A stretch of DNA of 64,000 nucleotides. Source: an uncultured Phycisphaerales bacterium (GTDB taxonomy: Bacteria; Planctomycetota; Phycisphaerae; Phycisphaerales; UBA1924). Location of the stretch: contig CAXBAF010000007.1 in NCBI GenBank assembly GCA_963973795.1, forward strand, positions 27,200 to 91,199, read 5' to 3'. Shown piece after piece: positions 9,076-35,300 of the stretch (position 1 is the first letter of the stretch; the number at the start of each line of letters is the position of its first letter). Both the position numbers and the translations under genes were made by a program. Under the pieces are notes generated by a model, which did no database searches, was not told where the DNA came from, and saw only the letters and a program-made list of their open reading frames with translations.

Positions 9076-11103
9076 ATGGCTTTGTTCGTGCATCGAGACT
9101 CGGCGTGCGGATGGGGAGGCGTTGCGGTGGACGGACTGACGAGACGCGTGCCCTCTGGGTATACGGCGGTGGATCTCTTCCCGGCGGCACCGGCGGGGGG
9201 AGGGGTTCAGCCGTTGCGGGTGTGTGTGCTGGTGCGCAACGAGCCGCAGCCTGTGGGAGGGCGGCTGGTCGTGGTGCGGGATGTATTCGATGCGTCCGTC
9301 TACCTCGGCTGTGTATTGGACGCCTCGGGTGCGGTGGATTCGTGGGTCGAGGTCTGGGTTCAGCGGGTGGACACGCTGGACGCCTCGGCGGGGGGCGGAC
9401 ACGGGACGCTGAGCAACGCCTCGCTCGAGGCCCGCTGGGCGCGGACCGTCGATGGCCTTGCGGCGACGGCGCCGGACATGCTGATCCGAACCGGGTACGA
9501 GACACAGAACCCGACCCCGATCGCTTTGGACGCGGTGAAGGGCGGGGCGCGGACGCCCATGCACGAGGCGACGGGCGCGGACTGGTCGGTGTGCAGGGAC
9601 GAGGATGTGCTCGCGTCGAAAGGGCTGGCGTCGTACCGGTCGTCGCTGGCGCGGCACCTCTGGATCGAGCAGTTGGGAGAGGGGTCGCCGTTCGTTGACG
9701 CATCGGATGTGTCGGCGGTCGGTTCGGCGTTGTTAACCGGCGTGAACCGAGATCTGGTCCCGTTCAACCTGGGCGGGGGCTTGATGATGGTCCGGCGGCT
9801 GGCGCCGATCGGGTATGCCGAGCAGGTGGGCGTGGTCGGCGGGCTGTCGTGGAGCGGCGTACGGCACGGCATCGAGGCGATCGATCTCCGGGCGGGGCAC
9901 GAGATGGTGACCCGGGTGAGCGGGTTCGCGGGTGATCCGGAGCCGATCGATCCGGACCGTCTGTTCCTGGGGCGTCACGGGCGATGGGGGCGGCTCGTTG
10001 AGTCGCTGCATCTGAAATTGAAGATGGTCGCCGAGGCGGTGGGGGCTGTGCGTTCTTCCTCAGAGCGCACGGGGCGACCTCTGCTCAACCTGACGGATGA
10101 GAGTTTTCGTGTCGAGTTATGGGAGGGCGGGATCGGCCTGCCCCGGTTGTGGACGAGCCGGGTCCGTCTTGTTGATCCGGGTTCCGCGTTCGAGATGTCG
10201 ATCGAGGGGCTGCGGGCACGCGGGTTTGTGAGCCCCGACGGCATCGGGCGCGGCGTCTATCGACCCGAACTCGGCGGCGAGGCGACCGGCGGACGGTGTG
10301 ACTTCCGGATTCGGTCCATCGATGAGAGTGATCCGAGCGGTGCGGTGGTCGAAGCTACGTTCCGGACTGACGCGCGGGTGTCCGGCGGCGGGAGCGAGTT
10401 GCTCGAGTTGCGGGTGCCGGCGGAGGGCGAGCGGCTGTTGTTGTATGGGCGGGTGCGGGCCGAGGAGGCGCTGGGGCCCGGGGAGCTGCGGTTCCGCGGC
10501 TTGCCGGTGCCCCTGGATGGGCGGATGGGTGAACTGATTCGCGCGGCCGAGGGTGTTCCGTTGCGAGATGTTTCGTTTGAGGTCGTGCCGCTCGCGTCGA
10601 CGCCCTGCGACCTGCACGCGCTTGGGGTTCTGGGTGTGCGCACGCTGCTGGTCGATGGGGGTAACACGCTGCCGGTCGCGTTGGACGAGCTCGTCAGTCT
10701 TGCTCGGGTCGCGTCTGAGGGGCTGAAGGACGGGCTCGCGCTCGAGGATGCCTTTGAGCGGGCGTTCTTCTCCGATGTGAGGTGGGGAGATTCGCTCGGA
10801 CCGCAGCGGCTGGTGAACGAGGCGATCGTTCCGGCTCAGGCGGCGGACCTGATCCCTCCGGAGATCTGGATGCGGGTGCTGGCGCTTCTGAGCCGGATGC
10901 TGCTGGGGATCGAAGGTGTTTCGATGTGCCGAGACGCCGGGGACACGCGTGGATTGCACCCGCATCTGGTGTTCGACGGAGCTGCGGAGGGTCTGGCGTC
11001 GCTGCTGGTGCGGACGCGGAGCCTGATGGTGGTGGACTGGCGGCACAACCGTGAGGTTCACTCGGTGCTGCGGCGGTATCGCGAGGGGATGGCGTCGGCG
11101 TGA
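9076..11103 (+). CDS. Hypothetical 675-aa protein with no signal peptide; first gene of the plus-strand T6SS-containing block
   Basis: A long ORF with an ATG start and coding-like composition, divergent from the Fur-family gene. No family was recognised by eye. Confidence 0.7.
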   Translation: MALFVHRDSACGWGGVAVDGLTRRVPSGYTAVDLFPAAPAGGGVQPLRVCVLVRNEPQPVGGRLVVVRDVFDASVYLGCVLDASGAVDSWVEVWVQRVDTLDASAGGGHGTLSNASLEARWARTVDGLAATAPDMLIRTGYETQNPTPIALDAVKGGARTPMHEATGADWSVCRDEDVLASKGLASYRSSLARHLWIEQLGEGSPFVDASDVSAVGSALLTGVNRDLVPFNLGGGLMMVRRLAPIGYAEQVGVVGGLSWSGVRHGIEAIDLRAGHEMVTRVSGFAGDPEPIDPDRLFLGRHGRWGRLVESLHLKLKMVAEAVGAVRSSSERTGRPLLNLTDESFRVELWEGGIGLPRLWTSRVRLVDPGSAFEMSIEGLRARGFVSPDGIGRGVYRPELGGEATGGRCDFRIRSIDESDPSGAVVEATFRTDARVSGGGSELLELRVPAEGERLLLYGRVRAEEALGPGELRFRGLPVPLDGRMGELIRAAEGVPLRDVSFEVVPLASTPCDLHALGVLGVRTLLVDGGNTLPVALDELVSLARVASEGLKDGLALEDAFERAFFSDVRWGDSLGPQRLVNEAIVPAQAADLIPPEIWMRVLALLSRMLLGIEGVSMCRDAGDTRGLHPHLVFDGAAEGLASLLVRTRSLMVVDWRHNREVHSVLRRYREGMASA

Positions 11104-11779: not shown

Positions 11780-14700
11780 TTGTTTGATGTGTCGGATCGA
11801 TCGCGAGAGACCCGCGTCGGCCTGCGTGGCTCGCGTGGGTTGTGTGGAAGGGGTGCGTGCGTGCCGTTGATTGCGGGCAAGCGTGCGGATTCGATCGGCG
11901 GGCACGCGATTGAGCGTCCTGTCGCGGTCGGGGTGCGCGAGAGCACTTGGCTCGCCTACGACCGGACCGGTGATCCCTGTGTCATCGAGGTCTGGGAGCG
12001 GTTCGACGACGGGCCGGTCGCGGGAGCGGATCTCGACGCGTTTGTTGAGCGTGCGGCGCTTCAGCGGCGGGTCGCGGCTGCAGGCGGCAACGCGGAGCGG
12101 ATACTCGGTGGCGGACACGTCGTTGGCGTACGCACGCTCGAAGCGACGGACTTTGGAGCGTTCTACACGCGCGATCGGTACGGGGTTTCGGCGGCGGAGT
12201 TGGCGGCCGGCAAGGTCCGGCTGCGTGGGGATGCGCTGCACGAGATCATGTCGGGCGTGGTCGGCGGGCTGCAGATTTTCCGTGAGCGGGCGGGTCGGCC
12301 GCACGGGGGGCTTGACGCATCCGCGGTTTTGATCTCCGATGGCGCGCCGGGAAAGCGTCGCGTCGGGCTCCGGGCGCCGGCAACCGCTGGCGAGTTGGCG
12401 GAAATCGGTGATCCCGACGGCGACGAGTTGCGGCGGATCGGTCTGCTGATCTTCGAGTTGGTGCAGCATCGCCCGTTTCGCGCGATGGGTGGGTACCCGG
12501 TCCGTGATGGGTCGGAATGGCAGGGGCTTGGGAAGTCCGGTGGGTTCTGGCTCGGGCTCGTCAATGAATTGCTTGCGCCCTCGGGCTGCAGGCTGACGCT
12601 TGGCGAGGTCGCGTCACGGATCGCGGGGCTGCGGTTCCGGGTGGACAAGCCGGGCGCAGGGGTCTGGCTCGGGCGGGCGGGGATCGCGGCGGCGGTGCTC
12701 GGGCTGGTTGGCGGCGGTGTGTGGTTCGGGCTGCGTCCGAGCGAAGAAGCACCCAGGGCGGATTACCGGGACTCGGAGTTCGAACAGTGGCTCCGCACGG
12801 TGCCTGTTGTGGTGTCGCTACGTGAGCGGGTTGGGGCGATGCCCGACGCGCCGGCGGTTCTGCGCGAGGCGGTCGGGCGGCTTGATCCTGAGTCGACGCC
12901 GCGGGGTGGTGTGGACGATTACTTTGATATCCCGAGTCTGTTTGAGGAAGCGGAGCTGTATCGGGTGTTTCGAGCGAGGCTCGACGGCCCGTTGCCTCAA
13001 CTCGTGGAGAGTGTTCAACAGTTTGCACAGAAAGATTTCGAGGCGAGGGCGGAGACGCAGGAAGAATCCGAGGATCAGAAGCGGCTCGAGCGGCTGGCGT
13101 TCCTGTTCCGGAAGGGGCTTGCCCGCTTCGGCGTCGAGACAGAATCGGAGCAGGTCGCGGACGCCGGGGGTGTCCAGGACGAGACCGGCGAGACGGCCGG
13201 GGGCGGTTCGTCTGATCCTGTCGACGAGGCGACCCTGAGCCTGCTTGACTCGTTCTCTCACGACAATTGGGCGTCGCATGGGATGATCGCGGGGTTGGTT
13301 GAGGGGGACGGGGTTGCCTGGTTCCGGCCTTCCGCAGCGAGTCTCTTTTCTTCACAGCTGGATGAGATCCGCGACGGACTTTCGGTGCTCGCCGACGGCG
13401 CGACGGACTTCGATGGGGCGACGGCGCACAGGCCTGTTGTCGGTGCGGTCGAGGAGACGGTTGGGCGCTTTGTCGGGGCGGTCGAATCTGTCGAGCGCAC
13501 CGCGGGCGTGATCGGTGTGTGGCGTGACGGGCTGTATCCGCGGATTGAATCCGGGAGTTCGGTCATCGCGGCGGCGTCGGCATGGCCTGATGTCCCCGCG
13601 TCGGTTGCGGATGATCTTCCGGATGGCGGCGATCCGTACCTCGCGTCGTTTGAGTCATTCGCGGAGCGGGTCGGCGTCGTTGGCGATGGCGAGACGGATG
13701 AAGACCTCGGTCGGCGTCTGGAGGCTGCGGCGGCCGCGGTGGACGCGGTACGGGCGGTTATCGAGCGAGGGTGGGATGCGGGGTCCGTGGATCTTCTGGC
13801 TCACGCGGCGTGGGTGGAATCGGCTCGGGATCGGATCGCGGAGAGGCCTGCTGCGAGCGACGGTGACGAGTTGGCGGTGTGGATCGATGCCCGGATCGCA
13901 TTGAGCGAGGAATGGCTGGAAAGCGTGGCGTCGGCGACGCCGGTTGCAGCGGACAGCGATTGGCCGGCTGCCGATTTTGCGAGTGAACTCGCGGCGACGC
14001 GTGATTTGTGGCGAGAGGCGATGCGTGACGCGCGGCAGGACACCCTGGAGGCGGAGGCAGAGATCGCGGGCGGGGTCGGGGTGATCGCGCCGGCGCTCGA
14101 TGCGGTCGAGGAGCGGCTGCGTGAGGTCCGGCGGCAGCCGCGGTGGCGGAGTCTTCGCGATGAGGTCGATTCCGAGTCGCGTGGGTTGGAGCGAGACTTT
14201 GCATCGCTGGCGACGATGATCGAGCGGATTCACGCGCAGGTGCTGCAGCCTCCGCGGGATCTGATCGCGTTTTGGCGGGAGAACCCGATCCGCGTGGAGG
14301 GGTTCGACGGCGCGGAGGAGCTGGCGCTTGCGGGCGGGGCGATTGTTGAGCGGTACGCCGTTGAATGGGAACGCTGGGCGGCGGGTGAGGGTCTTGATGA
14401 TGAGGCGTTGAAGCGGGCTCCGCAGACGGACCGTCTTCGGACGGCGCTGCGAGGTGTCGATGAGGTCGTGAGGGCGGCGGCCGAGGATGTCCTGGGTGTG
14501 CTGGGCGAGGCACGGGCGTACGGCCGGTTCGACGGGGACGCGGTGGAGGGTGCGGTCGGGCGTTGGCTTGCCGGGCGATTCGCCGAGGCGGTGTTGTCGT
14601 TCGAGGGGTGGAGTGACAAGTCTCGACTCGGTGACGACGGTGTGTTCGCGACGCGGCTCGGTTCTCTCGCAGACGAAGCGGGGAGCACGCTCGACGCGCT

Positions 14701-16693
14701 CGCGGCGGATCTTGGGACGCTTTCAGAATCGTCGGGGCTTGTGGCGCGCGGGTACGGCGTCGGTGACCGCGTCGATGGATTCGCGGTGGGTGATCGCGTT
14801 GAACTCGCGTCGTTGGCGGATCGGCTTCGATCGCCCGATGTTCCGTCGGTCGCGGATATCGATGAGATAGATCAGGCGGTTCTGGCGGTTGAGGGGTTGG
14901 TTGAGATTTCACGGGTCGATGACCCCAGCTTGCTGATGGATGCGTTTGTCGCCGAGTGCGGTTCGGCGGGGCGGGCCGGGATCGGTGTTCAGGCGATCCG
15001 ACGGCTCGATTCGATCGGCCGGGACGCGGGCGCGTGGCCGAGTTCGATCGATGTGATGTTGCGAGACCGCGACGGCCTCGCGGACGGGATCTCGGCGCTG
15101 CGGGGCACGGTCCCGGCGGGTGACTTTGAGAAGATTGGTGAGGCGCTCCGCGGGATCGTCCGGGCCTGGTGGCTGCGCGGGGTGGCCGAGGCAGACGATC
15201 GCGGTGACTTTGCGCGGGGTGTGAGCGGCGCGTCGTCGTGGTTCGACGGGGTTGGCGACGGCTGGGTCGGGGTGCTTGGTTCGGAATTGCTGACGGGGCG
15301 GGCTCGGTACAACGCGGCGCTCGTGGGGCTGCGGGCCGAGATCGACGAGTTGGGTAGAAAGGCGATGGTGCAGGCGTCGTCATCGGATTCGAGTGCGATC
15401 CCGGGGATCGATGCTCGGCTGCTGTCTGATGTGCGTGCCAAACTCGGTGAGATCAACCGGCTTGCGCAGCAGACGCTCGACGACGGGGAGCGGGCTCGGG
15501 CGTTGATGTGGGTGCGGGGGTTTGAGCGTGAGCTCAACGACGCACAGGGCGGGCGGCGCGGCTGGGATGAGGCCGGTGTTGGCCCAGTCGGCGCAGGGCT
15601 GGCGAACTGGTCGGCGACGCTGGACGAAAACGTGGAGCCGCCGCGGGTGGTGTATTCGTATTCCCCACCGCAGGCGTCGGACGCGGTGTCGATTGAGTTC
15701 AGGCTGGTCTCTGATTTGCCCAGCGGTGGGCAGGTGTTTCTCGGTGCCGATGAGGTGTCGGTGGCTGTGTTCGGAGCCATGCTTCGCGGAACCGCTGAGA
15801 AGCTTGAGGACCGTTTGGCGGGTTCGATGTACGAGGATGTGGACGGCCGGCTCGAGGGGAACATGGTTGAGGGCCCCTCGACGCGAGAGTTGTTTGCTCG
15901 GCGTGGCGGTCGGTCGCGGTTCCGGGTCCGCTCGCGGGAGCTGTGGCTGGATTCCGAAGACGGGCGCTACGGCCCGCCGGAGCGGAAGGCTTCATTCCCG
16001 TCATACCCGGATGGGTTACGAGGTGCAGACCCGAAATCGATCGCGCCGTCTCAGGGCGAGCCGGACGAGGCCCACCCGGTGAACTACGTGAACTCCGCGG
16101 TGGCGTTCGACCTCGCGGAGGCGTTCGGCTGTCGGCTTCCGACGATCGAGGAGTTTCAGGCCGCGATGTCGGCTCCCGGCGTTCCCTCGGTCCGGAGCGG
16201 GCGATGGAACCTGCGCGATGCGACGTTCGGGCGGCAGGTCGAGCACTTCAAATCGGCGTTCGAGATGGAAGTAACGACGCATTATCAGCCGGGCAAGTGG
16301 TCGTACGACGGGACGAACGGCGCGAGTTCCGCGGACTGGGGTCTGGCGGGTGATGACGACCGACTCTGGTTCTATCGGACGGGCGCGGGCGTGGAGAATG
16401 GGTTTCAGAACGGTGTGCTGTTCCGGCACCTGATCGGGAACGTCGCGGAGTATGTGATCGTCGATGAGGGTGCGCGGGACAGCCGGGGCGTGCGCATTCT
16501 GGGCGCGTCGGCGCTGTCCGACCCGACCGTGTCCCCGGGTGATGTGCGGGAGGTCGATGGGGCGCGGAATGGCTACGTGGACGTGGGCTTCCGCCTCGCG
16601 ATCGACGCGGACGACTTCGGGAGCCTCGGCAAGCTGGTCCGTCGACAGATCGCGGAGTCCGACGATTCGTTCTTCGTTGCGGGGGGCGGCTGA
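11780..16693 (+). CDS. Giant bitopic protein: N-terminal degenerate Ser/Thr-kinase-like (pseudokinase) domain, one TM helix, a helical ectodomain of about 1000 aa and a C-terminal FGE-sulfatase (SUMF1)-fold domain; PpkA-position gene
   Basis: The kinase-like region spans about aa 40-285. It reads CVIEVW where VAIK is expected, PHGGLDASAVLI where HRDLKPxN is expected, and has no DFG (RRVGLRAPA), but keeps DELRRIGLLIFELVQHRPF. The TM helix is WLGRAGIAAAVLGLVGGGVWFGL (nt about 12659-12733). The C-terminus (nt about 15685-16620) reads IEFRLV...GCRLPTIEEFQAA...WNLRD...FRHLIGNVAEYV...GYVDVGFRLA. The TTG 11780 start is uncertain. Confidence 0.8.
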   Translation: MFDVSDRSRETRVGLRGSRGLCGRGACVPLIAGKRADSIGGHAIERPVAVGVRESTWLAYDRTGDPCVIEVWERFDDGPVAGADLDAFVERAALQRRVAAAGGNAERILGGGHVVGVRTLEATDFGAFYTRDRYGVSAAELAAGKVRLRGDALHEIMSGVVGGLQIFRERAGRPHGGLDASAVLISDGAPGKRRVGLRAPATAGELAEIGDPDGDELRRIGLLIFELVQHRPFRAMGGYPVRDGSEWQGLGKSGGFWLGLVNELLAPSGCRLTLGEVASRIAGLRFRVDKPGAGVWLGRAGIAAAVLGLVGGGVWFGLRPSEEAPRADYRDSEFEQWLRTVPVVVSLRERVGAMPDAPAVLREAVGRLDPESTPRGGVDDYFDIPSLFEEAELYRVFRARLDGPLPQLVESVQQFAQKDFEARAETQEESEDQKRLERLAFLFRKGLARFGVETESEQVADAGGVQDETGETAGGGSSDPVDEATLSLLDSFSHDNWASHGMIAGLVEGDGVAWFRPSAASLFSSQLDEIRDGLSVLADGATDFDGATAHRPVVGAVEETVGRFVGAVESVERTAGVIGVWRDGLYPRIESGSSVIAAASAWPDVPASVADDLPDGGDPYLASFESFAERVGVVGDGETDEDLGRRLEAAAAAVDAVRAVIERGWDAGSVDLLAHAAWVESARDRIAERPAASDGDELAVWIDARIALSEEWLESVASATPVAADSDWPAADFASELAATRDLWREAMRDARQDTLEAEAEIAGGVGVIAPALDAVEERLREVRRQPRWRSLRDEVDSESRGLERDFASLATMIERIHAQVLQPPRDLIAFWRENPIRVEGFDGAEELALAGGAIVERYAVEWERWAAGEGLDDEALKRAPQTDRLRTALRGVDEVVRAAAEDVLGVLGEARAYGRFDGDAVEGAVGRWLAGRFAEAVLSFEGWSDKSRLGDDGVFATRLGSLADEAGSTLDALAADLGTLSESSGLVARGYGVGDRVDGFAVGDRVELASLADRLRSPDVPSVADIDEIDQAVLAVEGLVEISRVDDPSLLMDAFVAECGSAGRAGIGVQAIRRLDSIGRDAGAWPSSIDVMLRDRDGLADGISALRGTVPAGDFEKIGEALRGIVRAWWLRGVAEADDRGDFARGVSGASSWFDGVGDGWVGVLGSELLTGRARYNAALVGLRAEIDELGRKAMVQASSSDSSAIPGIDARLLSDVRAKLGEINRLAQQTLDDGERARALMWVRGFERELNDAQGGRRGWDEAGVGPVGAGLANWSATLDENVEPPRVVYSYSPPQASDAVSIEFRLVSDLPSGGQVFLGADEVSVAVFGAMLRGTAEKLEDRLAGSMYEDVDGRLEGNMVEGPSTRELFARRGGRSRFRVRSRELWLDSEDGRYGPPERKASFPSYPDGLRGADPKSIAPSQGEPDEAHPVNYVNSAVAFDLAEAFGCRLPTIEEFQAAMSAPGVPSVRSGRWNLRDATFGRQVEHFKSAFEMEVTTHYQPGKWSYDGTNGASSADWGLAGDDDRLWFYRTGAGVENGFQNGVLFRHLIGNVAEYVIVDEGARDSRGVRILGASALSDPTVSPGDVREVDGARNGYVDVGFRLAIDADDFGSLGKLVRRQIAESDDSFFVAGGG

Positions 16694-16701
16694 TGGACCG
16701 G

Positions 16702-16986
16702 TCAGTCGGTGATCAGGGGCACCGTCGCGTAGGCGTCTCGCTCGAGTCGGCGGAAGTTGGCCTCGGCGTGCGCGAGCCTGATGTGGCTGGCGAACATCGC
16801 GGCGCCGATCGAGTCGGTGACGGCGTAGGAGTCCTGCACGACCGGGTTCGGACGGAACCCGAGCGAGGCTTTCGAGGACGTGTGGCACCCGGTGAGCGCG
16901 ACCATCGCGGCGATGGCGGTCGCGGCGATGCAGGCTTTGCGGGTCGCGTTGCGGGCGGCGTTGTCGTTGTTCATAGCAGTCGGCAT
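16702..16986 (-). CDS. Small lipoprotein (94 aa), unknown function; the only minus-strand gene inside the block
   Basis: ATG 16986, preceded by GGAGGGAAACCAGCC, gives MPTAMNNDNAARNATRKACIAATAIAAMVALTGC (lipobox LTGC). It converges on the stop of the 1637-aa gene. The track ORF 16702..17115 extends further upstream. Confidence 0.5.
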   Translation of the reverse strand: MPTAMNNDNAARNATRKACIAATAIAAMVALTGCHTSSKASLGFRPNPVVQDSYAVTDSIGAAMFASHIRLAHAEANFRRLERDAYATVPLITD

Positions 16987-17210
16987 GGCTGGTTTCCCTC
17001 CGGGCGGGTCCGTGTACTGAACCGTCGGATCCGTATCGGCGGCGTGAGGCCGAGCTTTGAGATTGCGGGGGAGATGCGAGGCCGGGTAGTCGGTTTGTCG
17101 GGGTGGGGTCGGCAAACGCCGCGTGATCGGACGGCGGCAACGGCATCGGGGTCGTGGTCTGCGCGGTTTCCGGACGGTCTGTATGATGCGCCGAGCATGA
17201 GATCGGGCGT

Positions 17211-18176
17211 GTGGCGTTGGACGCCGCGTGGGTCCGCAGGAGTCGTGGGATGAGTGGCATGGGCGGAGAAACCTGGCGATCGCTCGCGGAACTGACCGCG
17301 AACCGGCTTCGGCTGATCCAGGCGGATCTTGCCGATGAGTCCGCGGAGTCGCGGCGGGCTCATCTGGATGACGAGGTGCGGGCGGCTCTGGAGAAGGTGC
17401 CCAATGCTGAGCGGAACGATTTTCTGGAACTCATCGAGGATCGATTCCCGGCATGGGAGGGGGGGCGCGTTGTGAGCGGAGCGTCTGAGGGCACGCTGGT
17501 CTCGGCGACCGACATGGCGGAATTCAACGATCCGGCGTTTCTGCTTCGGCAGCTCATGAAGGCCGCTGAGCAGATGACCCCCGAGCAACGCCGGGAGGCC
17601 GGCGAGCGTCTTGCATCGGTGGGCATCGCGCCCTCGGGTGTGGGCGAGATCCCGGTCGAGTCGCTCGCGAAGGCAAAGGCTTCGATGCAGGCGCCAGCGG
17701 ATGCTGACGTGGATGCGGGCCGGGTGCTCGAGGCGTCGGCGCTGCTGGCGGATCAGGTTCTTCTGTTGGACACGCTTGTATGGAAGATCTGGCGACAGAT
17801 CGCGCCGGATTCGCAGCACCGGAGCCGGACGCAGCTCGGCGCAACGATGTCGTCGTACCTGACGGGGAGCGGTGAGACCGGGCGGGGCGAGGTTGCGGAG
17901 AGTCTCGAGCGGTTCCGCCAGCTGACCGCGGCGCTCGTGAGTTCGATCGGCAAGGTTGGGAGCACGGCGTTCACGCAGCTGAGCCAGCTGAACCCCAACA
18001 ACATCGAGACGATGGCGAAGGACGAGAAGAAGTGGAACGAGAGCCTGGAGCTCGCGGCGTGGCGGAAGTATCGCGAGCTCGCGGGCAAGATGGATCAGGC
18101 GACGGTTGAGAACGAGATGATGCGCGCGGTGTCGCGTACGGTTGAGGACATCATCCGCCCGCGCGGGCGTTCGTGA
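17211..18176 (+). CDS. Hypothetical cytoplasmic protein at the fha/tagH position upstream of tssK; no FHA domain visible
   Basis: The ORF lies directly upstream of tssK with a 52-nt gap and is helical and acidic. The C-terminal half (FTQLSQLNPNNIETMAK..KW..LAAWRKYRELAG) is reminiscent of the non-FHA C-terminal region of TagH/Fha-type proteins, recalled from memory only. The start codon is uncertain, with several in-frame Met codons. Confidence 0.6.
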   Translation: MALDAAWVRRSRGMSGMGGETWRSLAELTANRLRLIQADLADESAESRRAHLDDEVRAALEKVPNAERNDFLELIEDRFPAWEGGRVVSGASEGTLVSATDMAEFNDPAFLLRQLMKAAEQMTPEQRREAGERLASVGIAPSGVGEIPVESLAKAKASMQAPADADVDAGRVLEASALLADQVLLLDTLVWKIWRQIAPDSQHRSRTQLGATMSSYLTGSGETGRGEVAESLERFRQLTAALVSSIGKVGSTAFTQLSQLNPNNIETMAKDEKKWNESLELAAWRKYRELAGKMDQATVENEMMRAVSRTVEDIIRPRGRS

Positions 18177-18228
18177 TCGCTGATCGCGGGCGGCGCTGGG
18201 CATTGGTGAGAAAGGGTTCGGGTGATCG

Positions 18229-19593
18229 ATGTCGGTCGAGGTGCACTGGCATGAGGGCCTTTTTCTTCAGCCGCACCACCTGCAGGCGTTCGGCCGGCAG
18301 GTGTGGGATCGCTCAAGGCGAGACCGGCGGCTCGGCTGGGGCTATCCCTACGGCGTTGTCGAGAGCAGGCTGAGCACGGACGAACTCGCGAACATGCGGG
18401 TTCGTTTCGATCGGCTGCGTGCGGTGATGCCCAGCGGGATCGAGGTCGATTGTCCCGGCAACTGCGACCTGCCCTCCCTGGATATCTCGGAGCGGTTCGG
18501 CTCGAGCACGGCCTCGTTCACGGTGAGCCTGGGTGTGCCGCTCTGGCAGAAGGAGCGAGCGAACTCGCTCGAGATCGGTGAGAGCGACTGGCGCGTCAAG
18601 CGGCTGTACCGCGTCGAGGAGCGCGAGAGCCCCGACGAGAACACCGGCGAGAACCCTCAGGGCATGCTGGTGCGGAAGGTCAACGCTCGGCTTCTGATGG
18701 ATGGGGACGACACGACGGACATGGAGATCGTGCCCCTCGTGCGGATCGGGCACGCCGCGGGTGAGGACATCGGTTCGCCTCGGCTTGAGCGGACCTTCGT
18801 GCCGCCCTGCATGCTGCTGAGCGGGTCGAGCGTGCTCCGTGAGATGATGCGCGGTATCGCGAACGACGTGGAGGCCGCGCGGGGCGAGACGGTTGTGCAG
18901 ATGACGCGGGGCGGGTTCAACATCGAGCAGATGCGTGGAGTGCACGTTCAGCAGATGATCAGGCTTCAGACGCTGAACAACTACGCCGCTCGGCTCATGC
19001 ACATGGTGCGGGCCGAGGGTGGGGTGAGCCCGTTTGACATGTATCTCGAGCTTCGGGGGCTGCTGGGCGGGCTTGCGTCGCTCCAGCCAGATCGTGATGC
19101 GTGGGACGCGCCGGACTATGACCATGACGACCCGGGACGGGTCTTCGAGGTGGTCTGCGACCGGATCCGTGCACAGCTGCGGAGCGAGGGCACGGCGAGC
19201 TGGGCTCGGGTGCGGTTCGAGCTCAAGGACGGCCTGCTGGTTGCGGAGCTCTCGGGCGAGCAGTTGACGAATCCGAACGAGTACTTCTTGGGTGTCCAGA
19301 CCGGCCGCGACCCGCGTGAGGTGGCGAAGATGGTCGAGGATCAGGGCGAGTTCAAGCTGACGGCGCTGAGCAAAGCGACGACACGTGTGCGTGGCGTGCA
19401 CCTTGCTGAAGAGCGGCACCCGCCGCTCGAGCTCCCGGCCCAGATAGGGCTGCACTACTTCCGTGTGGATCGGAGCCAGAGCACGCGGGTTTGGGGTCTG
19501 ATCGAGGAAGAGAAGATGCTGGCGATTAATTTTCCGGGCGTCGAGCGTAACGAGTTCGATGATGTTTCGCTGTACATGACGATCCCCGACTGA
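18229..19593 (+). CDS. tssK: T6SS baseplate protein TssK (ImpJ/VasE)
   Basis: The N-terminus VHWHEGLFLQPHHLQ is the TssK signature. Length is 454 aa, and the gene precedes tssL and tssM. Confidence 0.9.
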   Translation: MSVEVHWHEGLFLQPHHLQAFGRQVWDRSRRDRRLGWGYPYGVVESRLSTDELANMRVRFDRLRAVMPSGIEVDCPGNCDLPSLDISERFGSSTASFTVSLGVPLWQKERANSLEIGESDWRVKRLYRVEERESPDENTGENPQGMLVRKVNARLLMDGDDTTDMEIVPLVRIGHAAGEDIGSPRLERTFVPPCMLLSGSSVLREMMRGIANDVEAARGETVVQMTRGGFNIEQMRGVHVQQMIRLQTLNNYAARLMHMVRAEGGVSPFDMYLELRGLLGGLASLQPDRDAWDAPDYDHDDPGRVFEVVCDRIRAQLRSEGTASWARVRFELKDGLLVAELSGEQLTNPNEYFLGVQTGRDPREVAKMVEDQGEFKLTALSKATTRVRGVHLAEERHPPLELPAQIGLHYFRVDRSQSTRVWGLIEEEKMLAINFPGVERNEFDDVSLYMTIPD

Positions 19594-19612: not shown

Positions 19613-20356
19613 GTGCGCGGGGCGTGCCCCGGACGCGGGCTGGAGCGATGGATGAAGCTTCTAGCGGTCTGTGAAGAGATTTTTCAGTATGCGTGCCGGC
19701 TGAATCGGTCGGCACGGAAGGGGGCTCCTTTGGAGCCCGCGATGGTGCGCTCGGACATCAAGACCGTTCTGTCGCGGGTGCGGTCGAAAGCGGGTGGTGA
19801 TCCGCTGCTCGCCCAGCAGTACGACCGGGTTGAGCGCCCGCTGATCTACTTCATTGACTTCATGATCGAGGAGAGCGAACTCCCGTTTGCGAGCGAGTGG
19901 AAGGCGAACCGCCTGCAGAACGAGTACTACAGCGTCAACGACGGCGACGAGCACTTCTTCGACATGCTCGACGAGACGCTGCGGGACAACAGCCGGGAGG
20001 CGACGGATCGGCTGAGCGTGTTCTACACGTGTCTCGGCCTGGGATTCACCGGTTTCTACGCGGGGCAGCCTGAGTATCTGCGTCGCAAGATGATGGAGAT
20101 GAACGCTCGTCTTCGGGATGTGATGGAGACCGAAGCGGGGGCGAGGATCGTTCCCGAGGCGTACGAGTACACGGACTCGACCGACCTGATCCAGCCTCCG
20201 ACGCGGAGCCTGGTGAGCCTGGTCATTGTGATGTTCGTTGTGCTGGTCTCGCTGATCGGCACCAGCGTCTATCTGTACTTGGAGCAGTCCGCGGAGATGC
20301 GGCGGGCGTTCGAGGCGATCGACGAGGTGGTCAAGAGCGATGTGTCCGATGGGTAA
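19613..20356 (+). CDS. tssL: T6SS membrane complex protein TssL (DotU family)
   Basis: Motifs RPLIYFIDFMIEES and DRLSVFYTCLGLGFTGFY are present, with a single C-terminal TM helix LVSLVIVMFVVLVSLIGTSVYLYL. The start may be ATG 19652 rather than GTG 19613. Confidence 0.88.
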   Translation: MRGACPGRGLERWMKLLAVCEEIFQYACRLNRSARKGAPLEPAMVRSDIKTVLSRVRSKAGGDPLLAQQYDRVERPLIYFIDFMIEESELPFASEWKANRLQNEYYSVNDGDEHFFDMLDETLRDNSREATDRLSVFYTCLGLGFTGFYAGQPEYLRRKMMEMNARLRDVMETEAGARIVPEAYEYTDSTDLIQPPTRSLVSLVIVMFVVLVSLIGTSVYLYLEQSAEMRRAFEAIDEVVKSDVSDG

Positions 20357-24882: not shown

Positions 24883-27800
24883 ATGCCGAAATCCGAATCG
24901 CATCAGGTGTCGGCGTCCCAGCGCGTTTGGCTCGCGGTGCTCGGGAAGCACCCGGGCTGGAACGATCACCTCGACGACATCGGTCTCGACACCGAGCGGC
25001 TGGTCGCCGTCAAGCGGCATCTCTATGTCGAGGGTGTCGGCGGGGCGATCAACGCGGGGACGTGGGAGGCGTTGAGCGAGCAGGAGCGTGACGAAGGGTT
25101 CTCGCACACCTTCTTCTGGCGCCAAGCGGACGGCATGGTCATCGGGCGGATGTGGTCGTCGAGCGACGGCAAGGGGCGATCGAAGTACCCGATGATCGCG
25201 TGCGCGATGTGCAGGTCGCTCCCGTTTTCGTTCGTCGCGGGCCCGCTGCTTGAGCGGCTGCGCAGGCTCGAAGCGGTCTGCCGAGAGGTGACGACCGCGT
25301 CGGATGTGATCGGCGCGGTCGATCGGGTAAAGGCTGAGGTTGCCGAACTCGCCTCCTTCGCGCCGGAACTGAGCGACGCCCCGGTCGTGGGTGGTGAATC
25401 CGGGAAGGGCTCCGCCGCGGAATTGATCGAGAGCGGCCGGCTCGGCGAGGAAGGAGTCGGTCTTAAGCGTGTGCTGTATCAAATGGACCGCGAGATGGGC
25501 GCCTACGTCCGCCCCGAGGGAAGCGGGACCGCAAGCCGATCAAGATCGGTTGAGGTCCGCGGGCAGCACATCCGTGTCCCGACGTCGTCGGGGCCGATCT
25601 CGCCCGGGCAGGAACACCGGGATCTGAGCCTTTGGGCCCGTCTCCTGCTCAACAAGATCGATCCGTTGGTTCCGATCTTCCTTGCGACCAAGGACGGACG
25701 CGATTGGGTCGACATCATCGTCGGGGAGTTAGGGCCCACGCCGCTCGCGTGCCTGCAGTCTTCGCCCGAGGCGATGCCGTATGTCTCTGACATTCCCTTT
25801 ACGATCGATGGCGATATCGAGCAGTCGATCGAGCAGACCATCGAGGCGTCGCGTGCCGGGACAGTCGTCGAGCGAGATCCGTGTTTCGTTGACGTTCCGC
25901 AGGAACGGCTTGCACCGTTCCTGCGTCCACGCCGGGCAGAGACAAGCGCTGCGGAAACCGATCGGAAGCCGCTCTTTCTCGGGATCGGGGCGGCCGCGAT
26001 CGTCGTGGTGGTTGTTCTCGCTTTCCTGCTGATGCGGGGTGGCGGTGACGGCGTGGATCAACCAGAGACCCGCGAGCAGAGCCGCGCAGAGCCTGCGGAA
26101 AATCCTGCTGCCACCGAGATCAGCGACGGGCAGACACGTGCGGATCCGGTCAATCCGGCTGCGACTCGGGAGACTCCGCCGGGATCGGCTGTTGCAACGG
26201 ATGATCAGGCCACCGAGCCTGCTCCTGCTGATAGCCCGATAGATCGTCCGACCGAGGTGATCGCGTCCGATCCCGTGGGTCGGCTGGAGGCATTCGAGCG
26301 CTGGTGTGCTCGGTACGAGGTCTGGTATCTGCCGTTCACCGAAGCGATTGAGGACGGGGCAATCGCCGGCGACCCTGTGTTCGCAAAGGAGTTGAAGGCG
26401 GCGATCGCCTCCGCGAAGCGCGAGGGCGACCGGCTCGATCCGCTGATCAATACTCCCGGGCGATATCGGAGCCTCGACTCTCTGAGAGAGTCTCCACCCG
26501 ATGCGATCTACGAGCCCGGCTTCGGTGAGACGATCGCCGCGGGGCTCGGCCCGATCGAAACGATCCGGTCGGTGATGCATTCGAGCCGCTGGGAATCGAG
26601 GGAAGCCCTCTCTCGAATGGCGACGCTCACGGAGTCGTTCGGTGGGGTGATGCCGGATGACCTGTCGGCGTTGTCGTTGAGGCTCGATTCGGATGATGGA
26701 GCGGAAGCCGCGGGCGCGGTTCTCGGCCTTGCGGCGGTGTCTGGCAGCCTTGGTGCGAGCGTCTCCGCGATGGACCAACTGATCACGGTCCGAGGTGAAC
26801 TCGAATCGATCCCGGACAACTCTGTTGCGAGGGCGTTCGATCGGCTCAGCCCGATCGGGGAAGAAAGTTCTGGCAACACATGGCTCGCCGAGGCCCGGCG
26901 CAGGTCACTCGAACTCGTCGCGTTTGGCGAGGAATTGCTCGAAGCCGCGGAGTCTAACTATCCACGCGTGGATCCGGAGCTCTTTGCGGGGCGGATCGCG
27001 GCTTTGCCTGAAGCGACCGATTCGGCGACCGCGTTGGCGTACCTCCGGGGCTGGATCGAGACGACCCGGGACCGGTCGCTCTACCTGCTGGCTCCCGCGG
27101 ACGATCCCCGACGCGGGTTGTCTGAGCCGGAACGCGTCGCGGCGTTGCGGGAGGGATTGCAGAATCTGGCGGTGTCGGACGATAACGCCGAGACCCGCGA
27201 GCTCACGGGCCTTCTCGACGCGTACGACGAAGCCGCGAGCGAGTTGCGCGACCTTTCGTGGAACGAGGCGACCAAGGCCCGCGTCACCGAGGAAACAGTG
27301 GCGCTCACCGCGCTGCTGGATGGGATTGCGGACCGCATCGACGCGGAATCACGCAGCCGAGCGATCGAAGCAGAACGATACATCGCGACGCTGAACGCGA
27401 CGGGGACCGTCACGAATTCGGGATCTGACGCGATCGATCGCGCGTGGATCACAGCACGCGACGCCGCGGTCGATCGGTTTGAATCTGATGGTGATGTCGT
27501 CGCACTCTCAAGGGCGATCGACACCACGAAGGAAAGCCTCGCGTCGTTTGAATCGGCGATGCCGAGACCTGAGTTCGACGACGGTGCGTTGGGAACACTC
27601 TCGGCGATGTTTGTCTCGACGGCGGATGAAGAACGCGAACGGGTTCTTTCCGACTTGACCACAGCGGCTGATGCGGCGTCGGACGACGACGCCCTCGCTT
27701 TGTACAACGAGTGGCGTGAGAGAATCGTCGAGTCTTCTGGCTCGTTGGTGTCGCTGCGCGATGGTTTGGACACCTGGGACGATCGCGAGGCTCGCGAGGC

Positions 27801-29478
27801 GGCGGAGCAGTGGGGCGGCTCCTGGGCGGCCGCAAACATGGAATGGCGAGCAGAAGCGCCGGAACTTGGTCGGTATATCGAAGCGCTCGGCTCGCCGAAC
27901 CCTGTCCGTCTCGGGGAGATCGCGCAGTCGCCCGACTCCCAGCCGGGGATCGCGTTTGTGGCGTGGAGCCGCCTCGACGAGGCCGACCCGGAATGGGGCA
28001 CGTCGATCGAGCAACTCGAACTGGATCGGGTCGTGACGGGGCGTCTCGCGGAGTCTGTCGCAGCTCTCCCCGAAGCGAGGGCGGCGGAGGTGACTTCGAG
28101 CATGTCTCGATCGGCGACGGCGCGGTGGCTCCGAGGTGCATCTTCGTGCGACGCTGCACAGTTTTCGAGGATCGCAGCGATCGGTGGTGATCTTCCGCTC
28201 GCGGAAGACCAACTCCCGGCTGGCGTCCGATTCAACCTGTTTGTCGAAGGGCTCCGGCGCTCGCTGGGTCGGGGCGAACCGCTCGACCGGGAAGAACTCG
28301 TCGCTCAGGCAGAATCGGCGCGTGCTGGCCTCGATGAAGGCGGTGGAGCGAGCGCCTGGCTGGCGTCGTTCGTTGATGAGCTTACGGCCCGAGAGGGGCG
28401 TGAGGTTGACTACCGCGTCATCGGCCCGGCGAGAGCGGGGTGGGCTGTTGAGCCGTTCGATTCGGGGCGTGTGCTCCGATATTCATGGACCGGCGCGAAC
28501 CAACCCCGTGAACTGACATTCCGGCTCGTTGAATCGCCGGAGGCCGGCGTGTTTTATCTGGCGGAGACCGAGGCTCCGGCGTGGTTGATGATCGATTTCG
28601 TGCTCAATGGCGAGTACGCCGAGGCCGTGGCATCGAGCCTCCCCGAAGATTGGGACCCGATCCCCGACACCCGGCTCGGGCCGAGAGTCTGGGATTGGGG
28701 GCGGCAGCGAGGCGGCCGCGGGATCCGACTGGCCCGCACCTGGGTGATGAAGGATCGAGGGTCGGACCGGCCGTATTACGCGGACGGGTTCGAGGATCGT
28801 GTCGGCCGACCCGGTGATGACCACCCGATCCAACGAGTTTCAGCTCGGGCGGCGGCGAGCATCGCGGCAGCGGCCGGCTGCCGCTTGCCGACGCAGGCGG
28901 AATGGCGTGCCGCCTTCGGCACGATCGGGAGTCCTCCGCCGAGTGCGGATTGGAATCTCCGCGACCGGACATTCGACGAGCAGCGCTCGCACACGCTCTC
29001 GCTCGGCGCGGGGCTCGCGGTGACGTGGCCCGACCAGCAGTCGTTCGTCGATGGCATGGACGGGATCGGGCAGGGGCCGGACGCGGAGAGCCACGAATGG
29101 TCGGATGGCGTGCTGTGGTTCACCGAGGTCGCGGCGGGTCGTGAGCGTCCGTTCCGCCACCTTCTCGGGAACGTCGCGGAGTATGTGCTGCCGGAAACGA
29201 ACGACGCGGCATGGCTGTCGGATCGGGGCGGCGACGTGGGAAGCCGCGTTCGTGCGCTCGGTGCGGTCTCGCGGGTGCTTCCGGTCATCGGTGGTTCGTC
29301 GCTCTCGCCGCCGGGCGTTGGCGTTGATCGGGCGGTCGTCCCGGCGACCGACACCGGCGTGCTCGGCTACTCAGATGTCGGCTTCCGGCTCGCGTTTTCG
29401 CCAGGGGTTGAAGCGCCGCTGGTGGTTGTGGTCGGGGAGCTTCTGGGCGATGCGCCGTTCTTGCGCATGGCTGATTAG
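24883..29478 (+). CDS. tagF: TagF (DUF2094) domain fused to a TM helix, a giant ectodomain and a C-terminal FGE-sulfatase-fold domain (1531 aa)
   Basis: The N-terminus reads VWLAVLGKHPGWNDHL and IGRMWSSSDGKGRSKYPMIACA, matching the TagF patterns GKLPsrGDFv and pS.D.vGR.yPl. The TM helix PLFLGIGAAAIVVVVVLAFLLM lies at nt about 25969-26034 and is followed by a Pro/Thr/Ala-rich linker. The C-terminus (nt about 28507-29410) reads LTFRLV...GCRLPTQAEWRAAFG...WNLRD...FRHLLGNVAEYV...GYSDVGFRLA. Confidence 0.8.
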   Translation: MPKSESHQVSASQRVWLAVLGKHPGWNDHLDDIGLDTERLVAVKRHLYVEGVGGAINAGTWEALSEQERDEGFSHTFFWRQADGMVIGRMWSSSDGKGRSKYPMIACAMCRSLPFSFVAGPLLERLRRLEAVCREVTTASDVIGAVDRVKAEVAELASFAPELSDAPVVGGESGKGSAAELIESGRLGEEGVGLKRVLYQMDREMGAYVRPEGSGTASRSRSVEVRGQHIRVPTSSGPISPGQEHRDLSLWARLLLNKIDPLVPIFLATKDGRDWVDIIVGELGPTPLACLQSSPEAMPYVSDIPFTIDGDIEQSIEQTIEASRAGTVVERDPCFVDVPQERLAPFLRPRRAETSAAETDRKPLFLGIGAAAIVVVVVLAFLLMRGGGDGVDQPETREQSRAEPAENPAATEISDGQTRADPVNPAATRETPPGSAVATDDQATEPAPADSPIDRPTEVIASDPVGRLEAFERWCARYEVWYLPFTEAIEDGAIAGDPVFAKELKAAIASAKREGDRLDPLINTPGRYRSLDSLRESPPDAIYEPGFGETIAAGLGPIETIRSVMHSSRWESREALSRMATLTESFGGVMPDDLSALSLRLDSDDGAEAAGAVLGLAAVSGSLGASVSAMDQLITVRGELESIPDNSVARAFDRLSPIGEESSGNTWLAEARRRSLELVAFGEELLEAAESNYPRVDPELFAGRIAALPEATDSATALAYLRGWIETTRDRSLYLLAPADDPRRGLSEPERVAALREGLQNLAVSDDNAETRELTGLLDAYDEAASELRDLSWNEATKARVTEETVALTALLDGIADRIDAESRSRAIEAERYIATLNATGTVTNSGSDAIDRAWITARDAAVDRFESDGDVVALSRAIDTTKESLASFESAMPRPEFDDGALGTLSAMFVSTADEERERVLSDLTTAADAASDDDALALYNEWRERIVESSGSLVSLRDGLDTWDDREAREAAEQWGGSWAAANMEWRAEAPELGRYIEALGSPNPVRLGEIAQSPDSQPGIAFVAWSRLDEADPEWGTSIEQLELDRVVTGRLAESVAALPEARAAEVTSSMSRSATARWLRGASSCDAAQFSRIAAIGGDLPLAEDQLPAGVRFNLFVEGLRRSLGRGEPLDREELVAQAESARAGLDEGGGASAWLASFVDELTAREGREVDYRVIGPARAGWAVEPFDSGRVLRYSWTGANQPRELTFRLVESPEAGVFYLAETEAPAWLMIDFVLNGEYAEAVASSLPEDWDPIPDTRLGPRVWDWGRQRGGRGIRLARTWVMKDRGSDRPYYADGFEDRVGRPGDDHPIQRVSARAAASIAAAAGCRLPTQAEWRAAFGTIGSPPPSADWNLRDRTFDEQRSHTLSLGAGLAVTWPDQQSFVDGMDGIGQGPDAESHEWSDGVLWFTEVAAGRERPFRHLLGNVAEYVLPETNDAAWLSDRGGDVGSRVRALGAVSRVLPVIGGSSLSPPGVGVDRAVVPATDTGVLGYSDVGFRLAFSPGVEAPLVVVVGELLGDAPFLRMAD

Positions 29479-29567
29479 GTTGCTTTGTGTGCGGCTGTGA
29501 CGGCCGGTGCGGGTAGTTTGTGCTAACATATGCGTGGGTGATTTTCCACCACGAGCGGGGTTTTGTC

Positions 29568-32252: not shown

Positions 32253-32350
32253 GTTGCTTGTTTCTGTTGTAGACTGGACTTACGAGCGCCCCGGGAAGGG
32301 AATCGCTCCTTTGCTTCGCGTCAACACCGATAAGAATTGAGGGCCTCGAG

Positions 32351-35300
32351 ATGTCGCAACGTCAGACCAAGAGCCGTATGCAGAATCGCCGTGATCGTTC
32401 GCGCACGAGCGGGCTGATCACCGCGGGTGTGATCGCGGGCGTGGTGAGCGTCCCGGCGCTGGCGGGTCCCAGTGGCGAGCAGGTCGTCCACGGGTCGGCC
32501 CGATTCGACCGCGCCGGCAACCACACGACGATCACGACGAGCGATCGCGCGATCATCAACTATGACTCGTTCAACCTGAACCAGTACGAATCCGTCCGGT
32601 TCATGCAGCCCGGTGCGTCGTCGCGGGTTCTGAACCGGATCCAGGGCGCGGCCCCGACGTTGATCGACGGTTCGGTATTCGCCAACGGTAATGTCTACTT
32701 CGTGAACCGGGCGGGTGTCTTCTTCGGGCAGAACGCCGTGATCAACGTGGGCGGGATCTACGCCGCCGCGGGCAACATCACCAACCAGGACTTCCTGAAC
32801 AATGTCAACCAGTTCACCGACCTGTCGGGATCGGTGATCAACGAGGGCACAATCAACGCGACCAGCGAGGCCCACCTGGTTGGTCGTCGGGTCGCGAACT
32901 TTGGACGGATCGTCGCGCCGAACGGCATGGTTTCGATGACCGCCGGGAACGACGTCCTGCTCGGCCAGCGCGGGGGGAGGGTCTTCGCGCGGATCAGTGG
33001 CGACGCGTCGAACGCGGGCGCGGTCGGCGTCGAGAACCACGGTGTCATCGACGCCGGCTCGGGCCAGGTACTCGCGGGTGTGGGTGATCACTTCGCGCTG
33101 GCGCTTTACGACACCTCGGTGATCCGGGGCGATTCGGTCCGCATCGCGGGCTCGGCCCGCAGCACGGTGACGGTGCGCGGCGACATCGACGCCAGCAACG
33201 CGACCGGCAGCGGTGGTGATATCGAGATCCTCGGCGGGCGGATCGGTGTCTACGGCGCCGATCTGGACGCGAGCGGCACGACCGGTGGCGGCAATATCAA
33301 TATCGGCGGCGATGAGCGCGGGCTCGGCGAACGGCTCCGCGCCGAGGTGACGCTTGTGGACAGCGGGACCTCGCTGTCGGTCGATGCGACCTCGAGCGGT
33401 GACGCCGGGCGTGTCGTCGCGTGGTCCGACGGCGCAACAGTGTTCCGCGGAAAGGTCAGCGGCAACGCGCCGGGCAAGGGCGGCTTCACCGAGGTGTCGT
33501 CGCTGGGCTATCTGGAATTCAACGGCTCGATCGATCTTCGGGGCGCCGCCCAGAACGGCACGCTTCTGCTCGATCCCAAGAACATCATCGTGACCGCGAC
33601 GAATCAGGGCGGCGCGACGGATATCAACGACGTCAACAGCTTCGCCGTCGACCCGAACGCGACCACACTCATCCATGACCAGGTCCTCGAAGGCTGGCTC
33701 AACGGCGGCATCCTCGCGGACATCGTCTTCCAGGCGAACAACGACTTTATCTTCAACCCGTTCGCGTCTGTGACACAGAACGCCGGAACCAACTCACTCC
33801 GCATCTTCGCGGGTCGTCGAGTCGTGTTCGGCCCGAACTCGAATCTGATCATGGGCGGCGGCAGTCTGTTCGCGGTCGCGAACGCGGTGAATGAAGCCGG
33901 TTTCGTCGCGGCGAGCCGCGACGCGGGTCTCGGCTCGATCATCCTCGCGAACGGCTCGAACATCGAGATCCAGGGTGCGGGCCAGGTCGCGGACTTCACC
34001 GTCGATACCGGTGCGATGTCCGGTTCCATCGTCATGGTGGGGGAGCTGCTTTCGCCGACGATCAACCTCACCACGATCGACGCCACGAGCCAAGTGCTCT
34101 TCGTCGAAGACGGCAACGGGCTCACCGACCAGATCGGGCTCGGGGGCAGCGTCATCGTGAACGCGGGCGGTCAGGTCCTGTTCACCGGCAACGCGGGCGA
34201 GTGGTCGTTCGGTGCGCTGGATGTCACATCGCCTGAGATCCTCTTTGATAATGCCGCGACGGGCGTCGCGGCGACGGCCGGCTCGCTCCGGTTCGCCTCG
34301 CCTGTGTTCAACTCGGCGACCAACGGTCTGTTCACCTTCAACGGCCCGGCTGCCATCGAGGGGACCTACACGTCGGCCGGCGCGGCGCTCTTCACGGGCA
34401 CGCTGGACCTTGAGGGCGGGATCGATAGCAACGGCGACCTGACTTTCCAGGACGCGGTGACCCTGACGGGCGACGCGGTCATCAATCAGCTCTCGGCGGG
34501 CAATATTGAGTTCGCGAGCACCCTCGGCGCAACGAACGCGCTCATGGATGACCTGACCGTCAACCTCAACGGCAACGGCGACCTCTCGTTCCGCGGGCAG
34601 ATCGGGACCTTCGCGTCCCAACTCGGAGATATCCGGGTAACCGGCCTCAACGACACGCTCACGTTTGATGACTTTGTCTTCGCCGATTCGCTGACCTCCT
34701 CGGGTATCGGCGGCACGGTCAACCTCGGCAACGGCGATGACCAGTTCACGCTGCAGGGCAACAACGGGGCGGGCGCGGCGCTCGCGATCACTGGCGCCGA
34801 TGTCAATCTGGGCGGCAACGTGCTCGCGGTGGCGAGCGGTGTCTCCATCGAGCAACTGCTCACCGTCGCCGGCGATTTCTCGATCGGTGCGCTCAACCCA
34901 GCCGGGACGATCTCGCTGGGGTCGGTGCTTCTCGATGCCTCGGGCGGCAACGCGAACCTGACGCTCAACACGTTCGGCGGGGCGGACATCTTCGTCGCCG
35001 ACGGCGCGGGCGAGACCATCCGGCGCGACGCGAGCGGCGCGAACAGCGCCGATCTGAACATCAACTCGTCAGGCGGCGACGTGACCCTCGGCAATGTTCT
35101 CGCGAACGGGGCCGCGGATAACTTCCTGAATCTCCTTGAGATCCAGGCGGGCGCAGGCGAGGTGAACTATGCGGGCACCCGCTACGCGGCCGAGACGCTG
35201 ACGCTCAACGCCGCCGCCCACAACCTCGCCGACGCGGACAGCGTCTTCGGGGACGACGCGGCGTCGACCGCCGTCACCCAGGACATCTCCTTCCTGGGCG

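Follow-up and report, generated by a model that had tools for sequence, protein, structure and literature searches.

The window, a 64,000-nt stretch of contig C7 in the metagenome-assembled genome (3.83 Mb, 91% complete) of a marine bacterium that named homologues assign to Phycisphaerae, Planctomycetota, carries a complete T6SS cluster on the + strand. The first arm of the cluster encodes, in order, a 675-aa and a 197-aa protein, both without an assigned family, a 1637-aa protein, the product of the gene under study, which we call X, TssK, TssL, TssM and a 1531-aa protein. These are followed by a TpsB/TpsA pair and then by tssA, tssB, tssC, hcp, tagJ, tssE, tssF, tssG and clpV. Both arms match the gene order of the Pseudomonas aeruginosa H1-T6SS, with the fha-position gene, tssK-L-M and tagF in one arm and tssA-B-C-hcp-tagJ-tssE-F-G-clpV in the other, and the argument that X occupies the fha position, which the original prediction had made from the sequence, is on this order a fair one. 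The features of the first arm that bear on X are collected in Table 1.

Table 1. Positions of X, its parts and its neighbours in the window
Feature	Position	Strand	Basis
Pseudokinase at the PpkA position: dead kinase-fold head, predicted TM helix, C-terminus like that of the TagF protein	11780..16693	+	hhalign
Ribosome-binding site AGGAG, 7 nt before ATG 17250	17238..17242	+	read from sequence
X, FHA-less TagH homologue, 308 aa, predicted all-helical and cytoplasmic	17250..18176	+	homologue alignment, AlphaFold2, hhalign
Block 1 of X, residues 7-72, TANRLRLIQADLADE...RFPAWE, homologous to the helical post-FHA segment TagH 114-179	17268..17465	+	hhalign, HMMER
Block 2 of X, residues 198-281, sP..IE...KKWNES.E.a.WRKY, homologous to the TagH C-terminal core 276-361 (PF20232)	17841..18092	+	hhalign
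tssK, 52 nt after X	18229..19593	+	PF05936 4e-60; TIGR03353 4e-64
tssL (DotU)	19613..20356	+	PF09850 1.7e-26
tssM, 1469 aa	20420..24829	+	PF14331 6e-58; TIGR03348 1e-92
Membrane-anchored TagF: TagF-fold head ~15-340, hydrophobic ~365-385, long outer region, FGE-sulfatase-like C-terminus	24883..29478	+	AlphaFold2, Foldseek

In all of the X loci tssK follows X without an intervening tssJ (the gap here is 18177-18228), and no TssJ is detectable with Pfam in the window. Canonical planctomycete loci carry a TssJ-like lipoprotein gene before tssK, for example after TagH in locus L008.

Extent and predicted fold of X

The interval 17211..18176 on the + strand holds one open reading frame, as originally predicted, and its earlier start codon is a GTG at 17211. 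The predicted start, and with it the length of 321 aa, did not stand. Alignment of X with 41 homologues (42 sequences in all) shows that the homologues begin at the corresponding MSG..., and an AGGAG lies 7 nt upstream of ATG 17250, from which we conclude that this ATG is the true start and that X is 308 aa long. A promoter scan of 16600-18300 found no sigma-70-like promoter.

An AlphaFold2 model of X built from the 42 sequences (pLDDT 82) is made up of 13 helices and contains no strands. The FHA domain folds as a beta-sandwich, and the all-helical model is therefore incompatible with it. Comparison of the model with the PDB using Foldseek gave no significant fold match (best E 1.5, to generic helical repeats), so the structure gives no functional clue; a structure of the post-FHA part of TagH was not met in this search, and sequence searches of the PDB with X returned only noise at E>2.

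X matched no Pfam or NCBIfam model at E<=0.1, and no FHA domain was found in it by Pfam even at E<=10. FHA is also absent from the families most often matched by the 41 relatives of X (Pfam, E<=10), a local FHA HMM found none in the six-frame ORFs of the window, and all five FHA matches in the genome lie on contigs other than that of the window. A separate upstream FHA exon would have no room, because the non-coding DNA upstream of X measures ~260 nt. Together, the negative profile searches and the all-helical model confirm the earlier claim that the protein encoded at 17211..18176 has no FHA domain.

Two other accounts of the missing domain were considered and rejected. Loss of FHA as an assembly or frameshift artefact does not agree with the lengths of the best 150 of the 869 homologous clusters described below (247-348 aa, too short to include FHA) or with the common start of the aligned homologues. 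The proposal that the N-terminus of X is a new domain in place of FHA fails because this part matches the segment of TagH that lies just after the FHA domain.

Relationship of X to the post-FHA part of TagH

A profile of 189 X sequences was compared using hhalign with a profile of 55 TagH sequences from Planctomycetota. The two aligned with 97.1% probability (E 5.6e-11) over 240 columns, pairing X 7-281 with TagH 114-361, which is the part following the FHA domain, at an identity of only ~16%. The closest TagH is the planctomycetal subfamily represented by P0233 (locus L008/L053). When the N-terminal part of X was used by itself, block 1 alone matched TagH at 95-96% (E 7e-9 to 3e-8), and with the C-terminal half block 2 alone matched at 91.9% (E 6.8e-7), the order of the two blocks along TagH being preserved. 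A TagH profile of only five sequences gave 65% probability over 54 columns. As controls, 20 column-shuffled X alignments were run against TagH and gave E>=0.11, and the reversed alignment gave 0.074. Plain HMMER agreed with the profile comparison: an HMM of X residues 1-75 matched 51 of the 55 aligned TagH sequences at ~115-180, directly after their FHA domain, with a best E of 1e-10. Four positions (R19, R21, F66 and P67) are invariant in the alignment of X homologues.

The commonest Pfam match in the X family is PF20232, the C-terminal domain of T6SS FHA proteins, which was matched by 12 of 42 members, in every case below threshold (best E 0.0033). The window's own X has no match to PF20232, and a search of the genome with this model at E<=10 found no other TagH-like gene. 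The original prediction described the C-terminal half of X as loosely TagH-like; the relation to TagH holds, and its restriction to the C-terminal half does not, given that X 7-281 is covered. X is thus related to TagH/Fha and does not come from an unrelated family. Judged by sequence comparison, X is TagH minus its first ~110 residues, with both post-FHA helical blocks kept. Like TagH/Fha1 (TIGR03354; PF00498 plus PF20232, T6SS_FHA_C), it stands at the head of (tssJ)-tssK-tssL-tssM-tagF. Unlike TagH/Fha1, it lacks the N-terminal FHA domain of ~110 residues and so cannot read phosphothreonine, it falls below every curated threshold, and it is not separated from tssK by tssJ.

We found 77 relatives of ~303-310 aa by a word-indexed search, and a full HMMER profile search extended the family to 869 clusters at 50% identity, 445 of them below 1e-30; no Pfam or NCBIfam model matched the family at threshold. 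A scan of the genome collection gave 21 X loci, from Phycisphaerales, Tepidisphaerales, Sedimentisphaerales and Verrucomicrobiota (Pedosphaera, Limisphaerales). All related loci that extend far enough, including metagenome loci L001-L003, show the order X-tssK-tssL-tssM-TagF-head, and the closer relatives alone (10 loci) have the pseudokinase gene directly upstream of X. Among 151 Planctomycetota species genomes, 24 of which have tssK, the X profile matched its own genome alone.

The position of X is also that of the FHA-bearing TagH in five canonical planctomycete loci, and a form that bridges the two was found just upstream of tssK. The gene at this place in another planctomycete, G081 (locus L014), codes for a protein in which an FHA domain (Pfam 1.2e-6) is combined with a coiled coil and an X-like C-terminal domain (HMM E 7e-7 against X, hhalign 91.5% over 139 columns, PF20232 weak), and the three detectable relatives of this protein all have FHA. 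An FHA-less X-like protein precedes tssK in G063, as does a weaker one in G128 (E 0.18), where a 208-aa ORF, which may encode a TssJ-like lipoprotein, lies between the X-like gene and tssK. FHA-bearing and FHA-less forms of the X-like domain therefore occur at one position in Planctomycetota, which favours an origin of X by loss of FHA over coincidence.

It could be argued that X is an unrelated helical protein at the fha position whose similarity to TagH is an artefact of composition or coiled coils, and the X of the window, with no Pfam or NCBIfam match, no PDB fold match and such low identity to TagH, would suit this reading. Against it, two separate collinear blocks match where the shuffled and reversed controls fail, plain HMMER reaches TagH with an E of 1e-10, the bridging FHA protein carries an X-like domain and the gene sits where TagH does. 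We consider an artefact of this kind extremely improbable.

Two further observations concern the planctomycete TagH proteins themselves. Canonical loci L055 (15386-18611, G131) and L056 (769-2966, G061) carry two or three tandem TagH paralogues, and one of the five TagH proteins in the five-sequence alignment carries an FHA domain so degenerate that Pfam misses it.

Threonine phosphorylation genes and the neighbours of X

In an hhalign comparison, the heads of ten members of the family of the 1637-aa protein aligned with the Ser/Thr kinase domains of this genome (26 sequences; 98.7%, E 2.4e-16, 180 columns), and no Pkinase match was found in the window. Relatives that cover these columns all have Glu or Arg in place of the beta3 Lys and lack the DFG motif; in the protein of this genome the HRD position reads HGG, so that the HRD Asp is also gone. 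The pseudokinase named in the original prediction is therefore borne out as a kinase-fold head without its catalytic residues. HGD is kept at the HRD position in several relatives (L020, L021, L022, L026) and the head from L029 keeps KPTN; active-site decay across the family is uneven. The single hydrophobic stretch of the 1637-aa protein is read as a TM helix.

Downstream of tssM, the head of the 1531-aa protein gave an AlphaFold2 model of pLDDT 87 and pTM 0.87, for which the top Foldseek matches were the TagF proteins of Acinetobacter baylyi (9t0n, E 1.3e-6) and Pseudomonas aeruginosa (6iz8, E 7.5e-3). Sequence-based support was slighter, and the fold comparison decided the matter: Pfam and PDB sequence searches were negative for the TagF and kinase heads alike, the hhalign comparison with three planctomycete TagF proteins was weak (P 0.012), and PF09867 matched weakly in 3 of 16 TagF-head relatives. 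The hydrophobic stretch after the head, taken from the translation, is read as a TM helix, and PF03781 matches at residues 1310-1356 (E 5e-6). The C-terminal ~500 aa of the 1637-aa and 1531-aa proteins are paralogous (29% identity, E 4e-25), and both giants end in a predicted periplasmic FGE-sulfatase-like module. TagR, an activator of PpkA, is FGE-sulfatase-like and binds the periplasmic domain of PpkA (PMC13713981). Across loci the TagF-head proteins measure 318-354 aa (head alone), 650-840 aa or, with an added outer region, >1100-1531 aa; in four relatives the gene lies at L027 17492-18487, L028 10154-11110, L033 10017-10970 and L037 16794-17855.

No match to PF13672 or PF00481 (PP2C) was found anywhere in the genome, none of the seven significant SpoIIE-type matches (PF07228) lies on C7, and local HMMs detected no PP2C, SpoIIE or kinase in the six-frame ORFs of the window. 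The block thus has no PP2C gene, as had been claimed, and profile searches found neither FHA nor PP2C in the window. Up to 10 kb on each side of X, the X loci likewise have no kinase, PP2C or FHA detectable with HMMs. Elsewhere in the genome there are 28 Pkinase matches above the curated cut-off. One active-looking kinase gene lies on C7 ~6 kb upstream of the window, with mur/ddl cell-wall genes between it and the T6SS cluster. At C15:49025-58546, two FHA-SpoIIE fusions (612 and 586 aa) flank a kinase gene, with no evident link to the T6SS.

T6SS loci without PpkA/PppA are common, and this lack alone is not unusual. Among 18 T6SS-bearing Planctomycetota, an FHA-bearing TagH was found in six (five loci examined) and PP2C_2 on the tssK contig in one (G086, ~11 kb from tssK). 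Both Fha and the phosphorylation pathway are missing from 22% of TagF gene contexts (bioRxiv 10.64898/2025.12.08.692957), and tagH occurs without tagE/tagG in V. cholerae, E. coli O157 and Y. pestis (PMC13584744). In those clusters a TagH-family protein is likewise kept without a cognate active kinase or phosphatase, but the TagH there is described with FHA, whereas X lacks the domain altogether.

The original description of the pathway as dismantled fits what is found at this locus, namely a TagH body without FHA, a dead kinase head, a TagF-fold head and FGE-sulfatase-like modules on both giants. Compared with the H1-T6SS (TagQRST-PpkA-PppA-Fha1-TagF), the cluster likewise has a PpkA-like protein that spans the membrane once and bears a kinase-fold head, a TagF and a TagR-type FGE-sulfatase module. 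It differs in that the kinase head is without catalytic residues, PppA and the FHA domain are missing, TagF is predicted to be membrane-anchored, and the TagR-type module, a free periplasmic protein in the H1-T6SS, is fused to the C-termini of the pseudokinase and TagF. The TSA cluster of A. baylyi (TagF plus TagZ) also has a membrane-held TagF without PpkA, PppA or an FHA protein (bioRxiv 10.64898/2025.12.08.692957), and the structure of that TagF is the best structural match of the TagF head here. Unlike that of A. baylyi, the cluster here retains a pseudokinase and a cryptic homologue of TagH, and its TagF is held by its own predicted TM helix rather than by a TagZ partner. In the papers searched we found no description of a TagH body without FHA, nor of its occurrence together with an inactive PpkA-like protein and a TagF that carries a TagR-like ectodomain. 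At the level of sequence, the X family is a large, unannotated FHA-less TagH family of PVC bacteria, in a threonine phosphorylation pathway that is seemingly hollowed out.

A possible role for X in T6SS control

We suggest that X probably does the job of the TagH body, promoting assembly at the membrane complex while being held or released by the TagF head and, in loci that have it, by the pseudokinase head, without phosphorylation. X would be a cytoplasmic adaptor that promotes T6SS assembly at the TssK/L/M complex, and TagF would hold it back. Phosphothreonine would be neither written by the dead kinase, nor read by X, nor erased by a phosphatase of the cluster; since the cluster has no writer, reader or eraser of this mark, control would be exerted by proteins that touch one another directly. 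An outside signal would be sensed by the periplasmic FGE-like (TagR-type) modules on the pseudokinase and TagF and, passing through the single TM helices, would change how both cytoplasmic heads bind or release X. The pseudokinase cannot be essential to the function of X, since its gene accompanies X in the 10 loci of closer relatives only.

Direct binding of TagF to Fha has been reported in Agrobacterium and Pseudomonas (PMC5995506). We found no mapping of the TagF-binding site on Fha in that paper, and if TagF were to bind FHA itself, this mode of sequestration would not be open to X. TagF may also not target X at all, by comparison with A. baylyi, where Fha and the phosphorylation pathway are lacking, TagF acts on Hcp, and TagZ brings TagF to the membrane (bioRxiv 10.64898/2025.12.08.692957); this counts against the adaptor model.

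The A. baylyi case leads to the main alternative, in which X is a constitutive structural or assembly factor derived from TagH without a checkpoint role, TagF acts on Hcp or the baseplate, and the pseudokinase has the unrelated task of an envelope sensor or anchor. The TagF of A. baylyi needs recruitment to the membrane and the TagF here is itself membrane-anchored, the more distant X loci have no pseudokinase, and TagH is kept in species without PpkA and PppA (PMC13584744), all of which would agree with a constitutive factor. We nevertheless consider it unlikely, because X and TagF are invariably found in one five-gene module, TagF does bind Fha in the two systems cited above, and the paralogous TagR-like ectodomains of the two regulators point to a common signalling role.

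As in the original prediction, we infer a phosphorylation-independent checkpoint, and we do so for a genome with 28 Ser/Thr kinases, 7 SpoIIE and 5 FHA matches elsewhere. The 28 active-looking kinases could still phosphorylate X. An active Ser/Thr kinase might therefore act in trans on X or TssL, with an FHA protein or SpoIIE phosphatase encoded elsewhere closing the circuit; the inventory just given, including the FHA-SpoIIE/kinase cluster on C15, and the active kinase gene upstream of the window on C7 would make such a circuit conceivable. The T6SS cluster is linked to none of them, however, the mur/ddl genes stand between it and the C7 kinase, and the related loci all lack a kinase, PP2C or FHA gene in the ~10 kb around X. 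In P. aeruginosa, moreover, PpkA signalling is dedicated and cluster-encoded (PMC13713981). Phosphorylation in trans thus appears improbable to us, and control of X by the TagF and pseudokinase heads is the reading that we prefer.

More tentatively, and with some doubt on our part, the X-type clusters of Phycisphaerae and Verrucomicrobiota might represent a fossilised threonine phosphorylation pathway, in which all the catalytic and phospho-reading parts (kinase active site, PP2C, FHA) have been lost and the contact scaffold kept. The TagH body would dock on the heads of the dead kinase and the membrane-anchored TagF, and the two TagR-like ectodomains would gate firing by transmembrane conformational signalling. 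If this reading is true, the post-FHA body of TagH would be the true effector of the pathway and phosphorylation one control among others. How TagH/Fha acts beyond its FHA domain is unclear (PMC13584744), and the existence of a large FHA-less family suggests that the post-FHA body is the functional core. The X family, syntenic with tssK-L-M-tagF, offers a clean object for studying this body.

Diverged homologues of Fha, TagF and the phosphorylation pathway can all be hidden in clusters that standard HMMs score as being without these three, and surveys of T6SS accessory genes may accordingly undercount them. An HMM of the X family would improve T6SS annotation in Planctomycetota and Verrucomicrobiota.

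Several genes in and around the cluster were noted in passing. The sole minus-strand gene of the block (16702-16985) encodes a small lipoprotein of ~94 aa with the lipobox LTGC; it is convergent with the stop of the 1637-aa gene and divergent from X, and a 103-aa minus-strand gene occupies the same place in L003 (9473-9784). The closer X loci all keep a gene for the 675-aa protein (9076-11103) upstream of that for the pseudokinase, with 38-71% identity between the proteins, and a weak homologue (22% identity, E 3e-9) is encoded directly upstream of the FHA-bearing TagH in a canonical locus (G125; L053 3-1706); it may be a further T6SS-associated gene. Two vgrG genes lie off the main cluster (C9:111084-112631 and C4:165297-166805), with none in the window. 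The TpsB/TpsA two-partner secretion pair lies inside the T6SS cluster at 29520-40594, and in distant relatives, including Verrucomicrobiota, TpsB or TpsA homologues are found immediately upstream of X (L001 1-9789; L034 1984-3975; L038 2-9724), making this a recurrent association.
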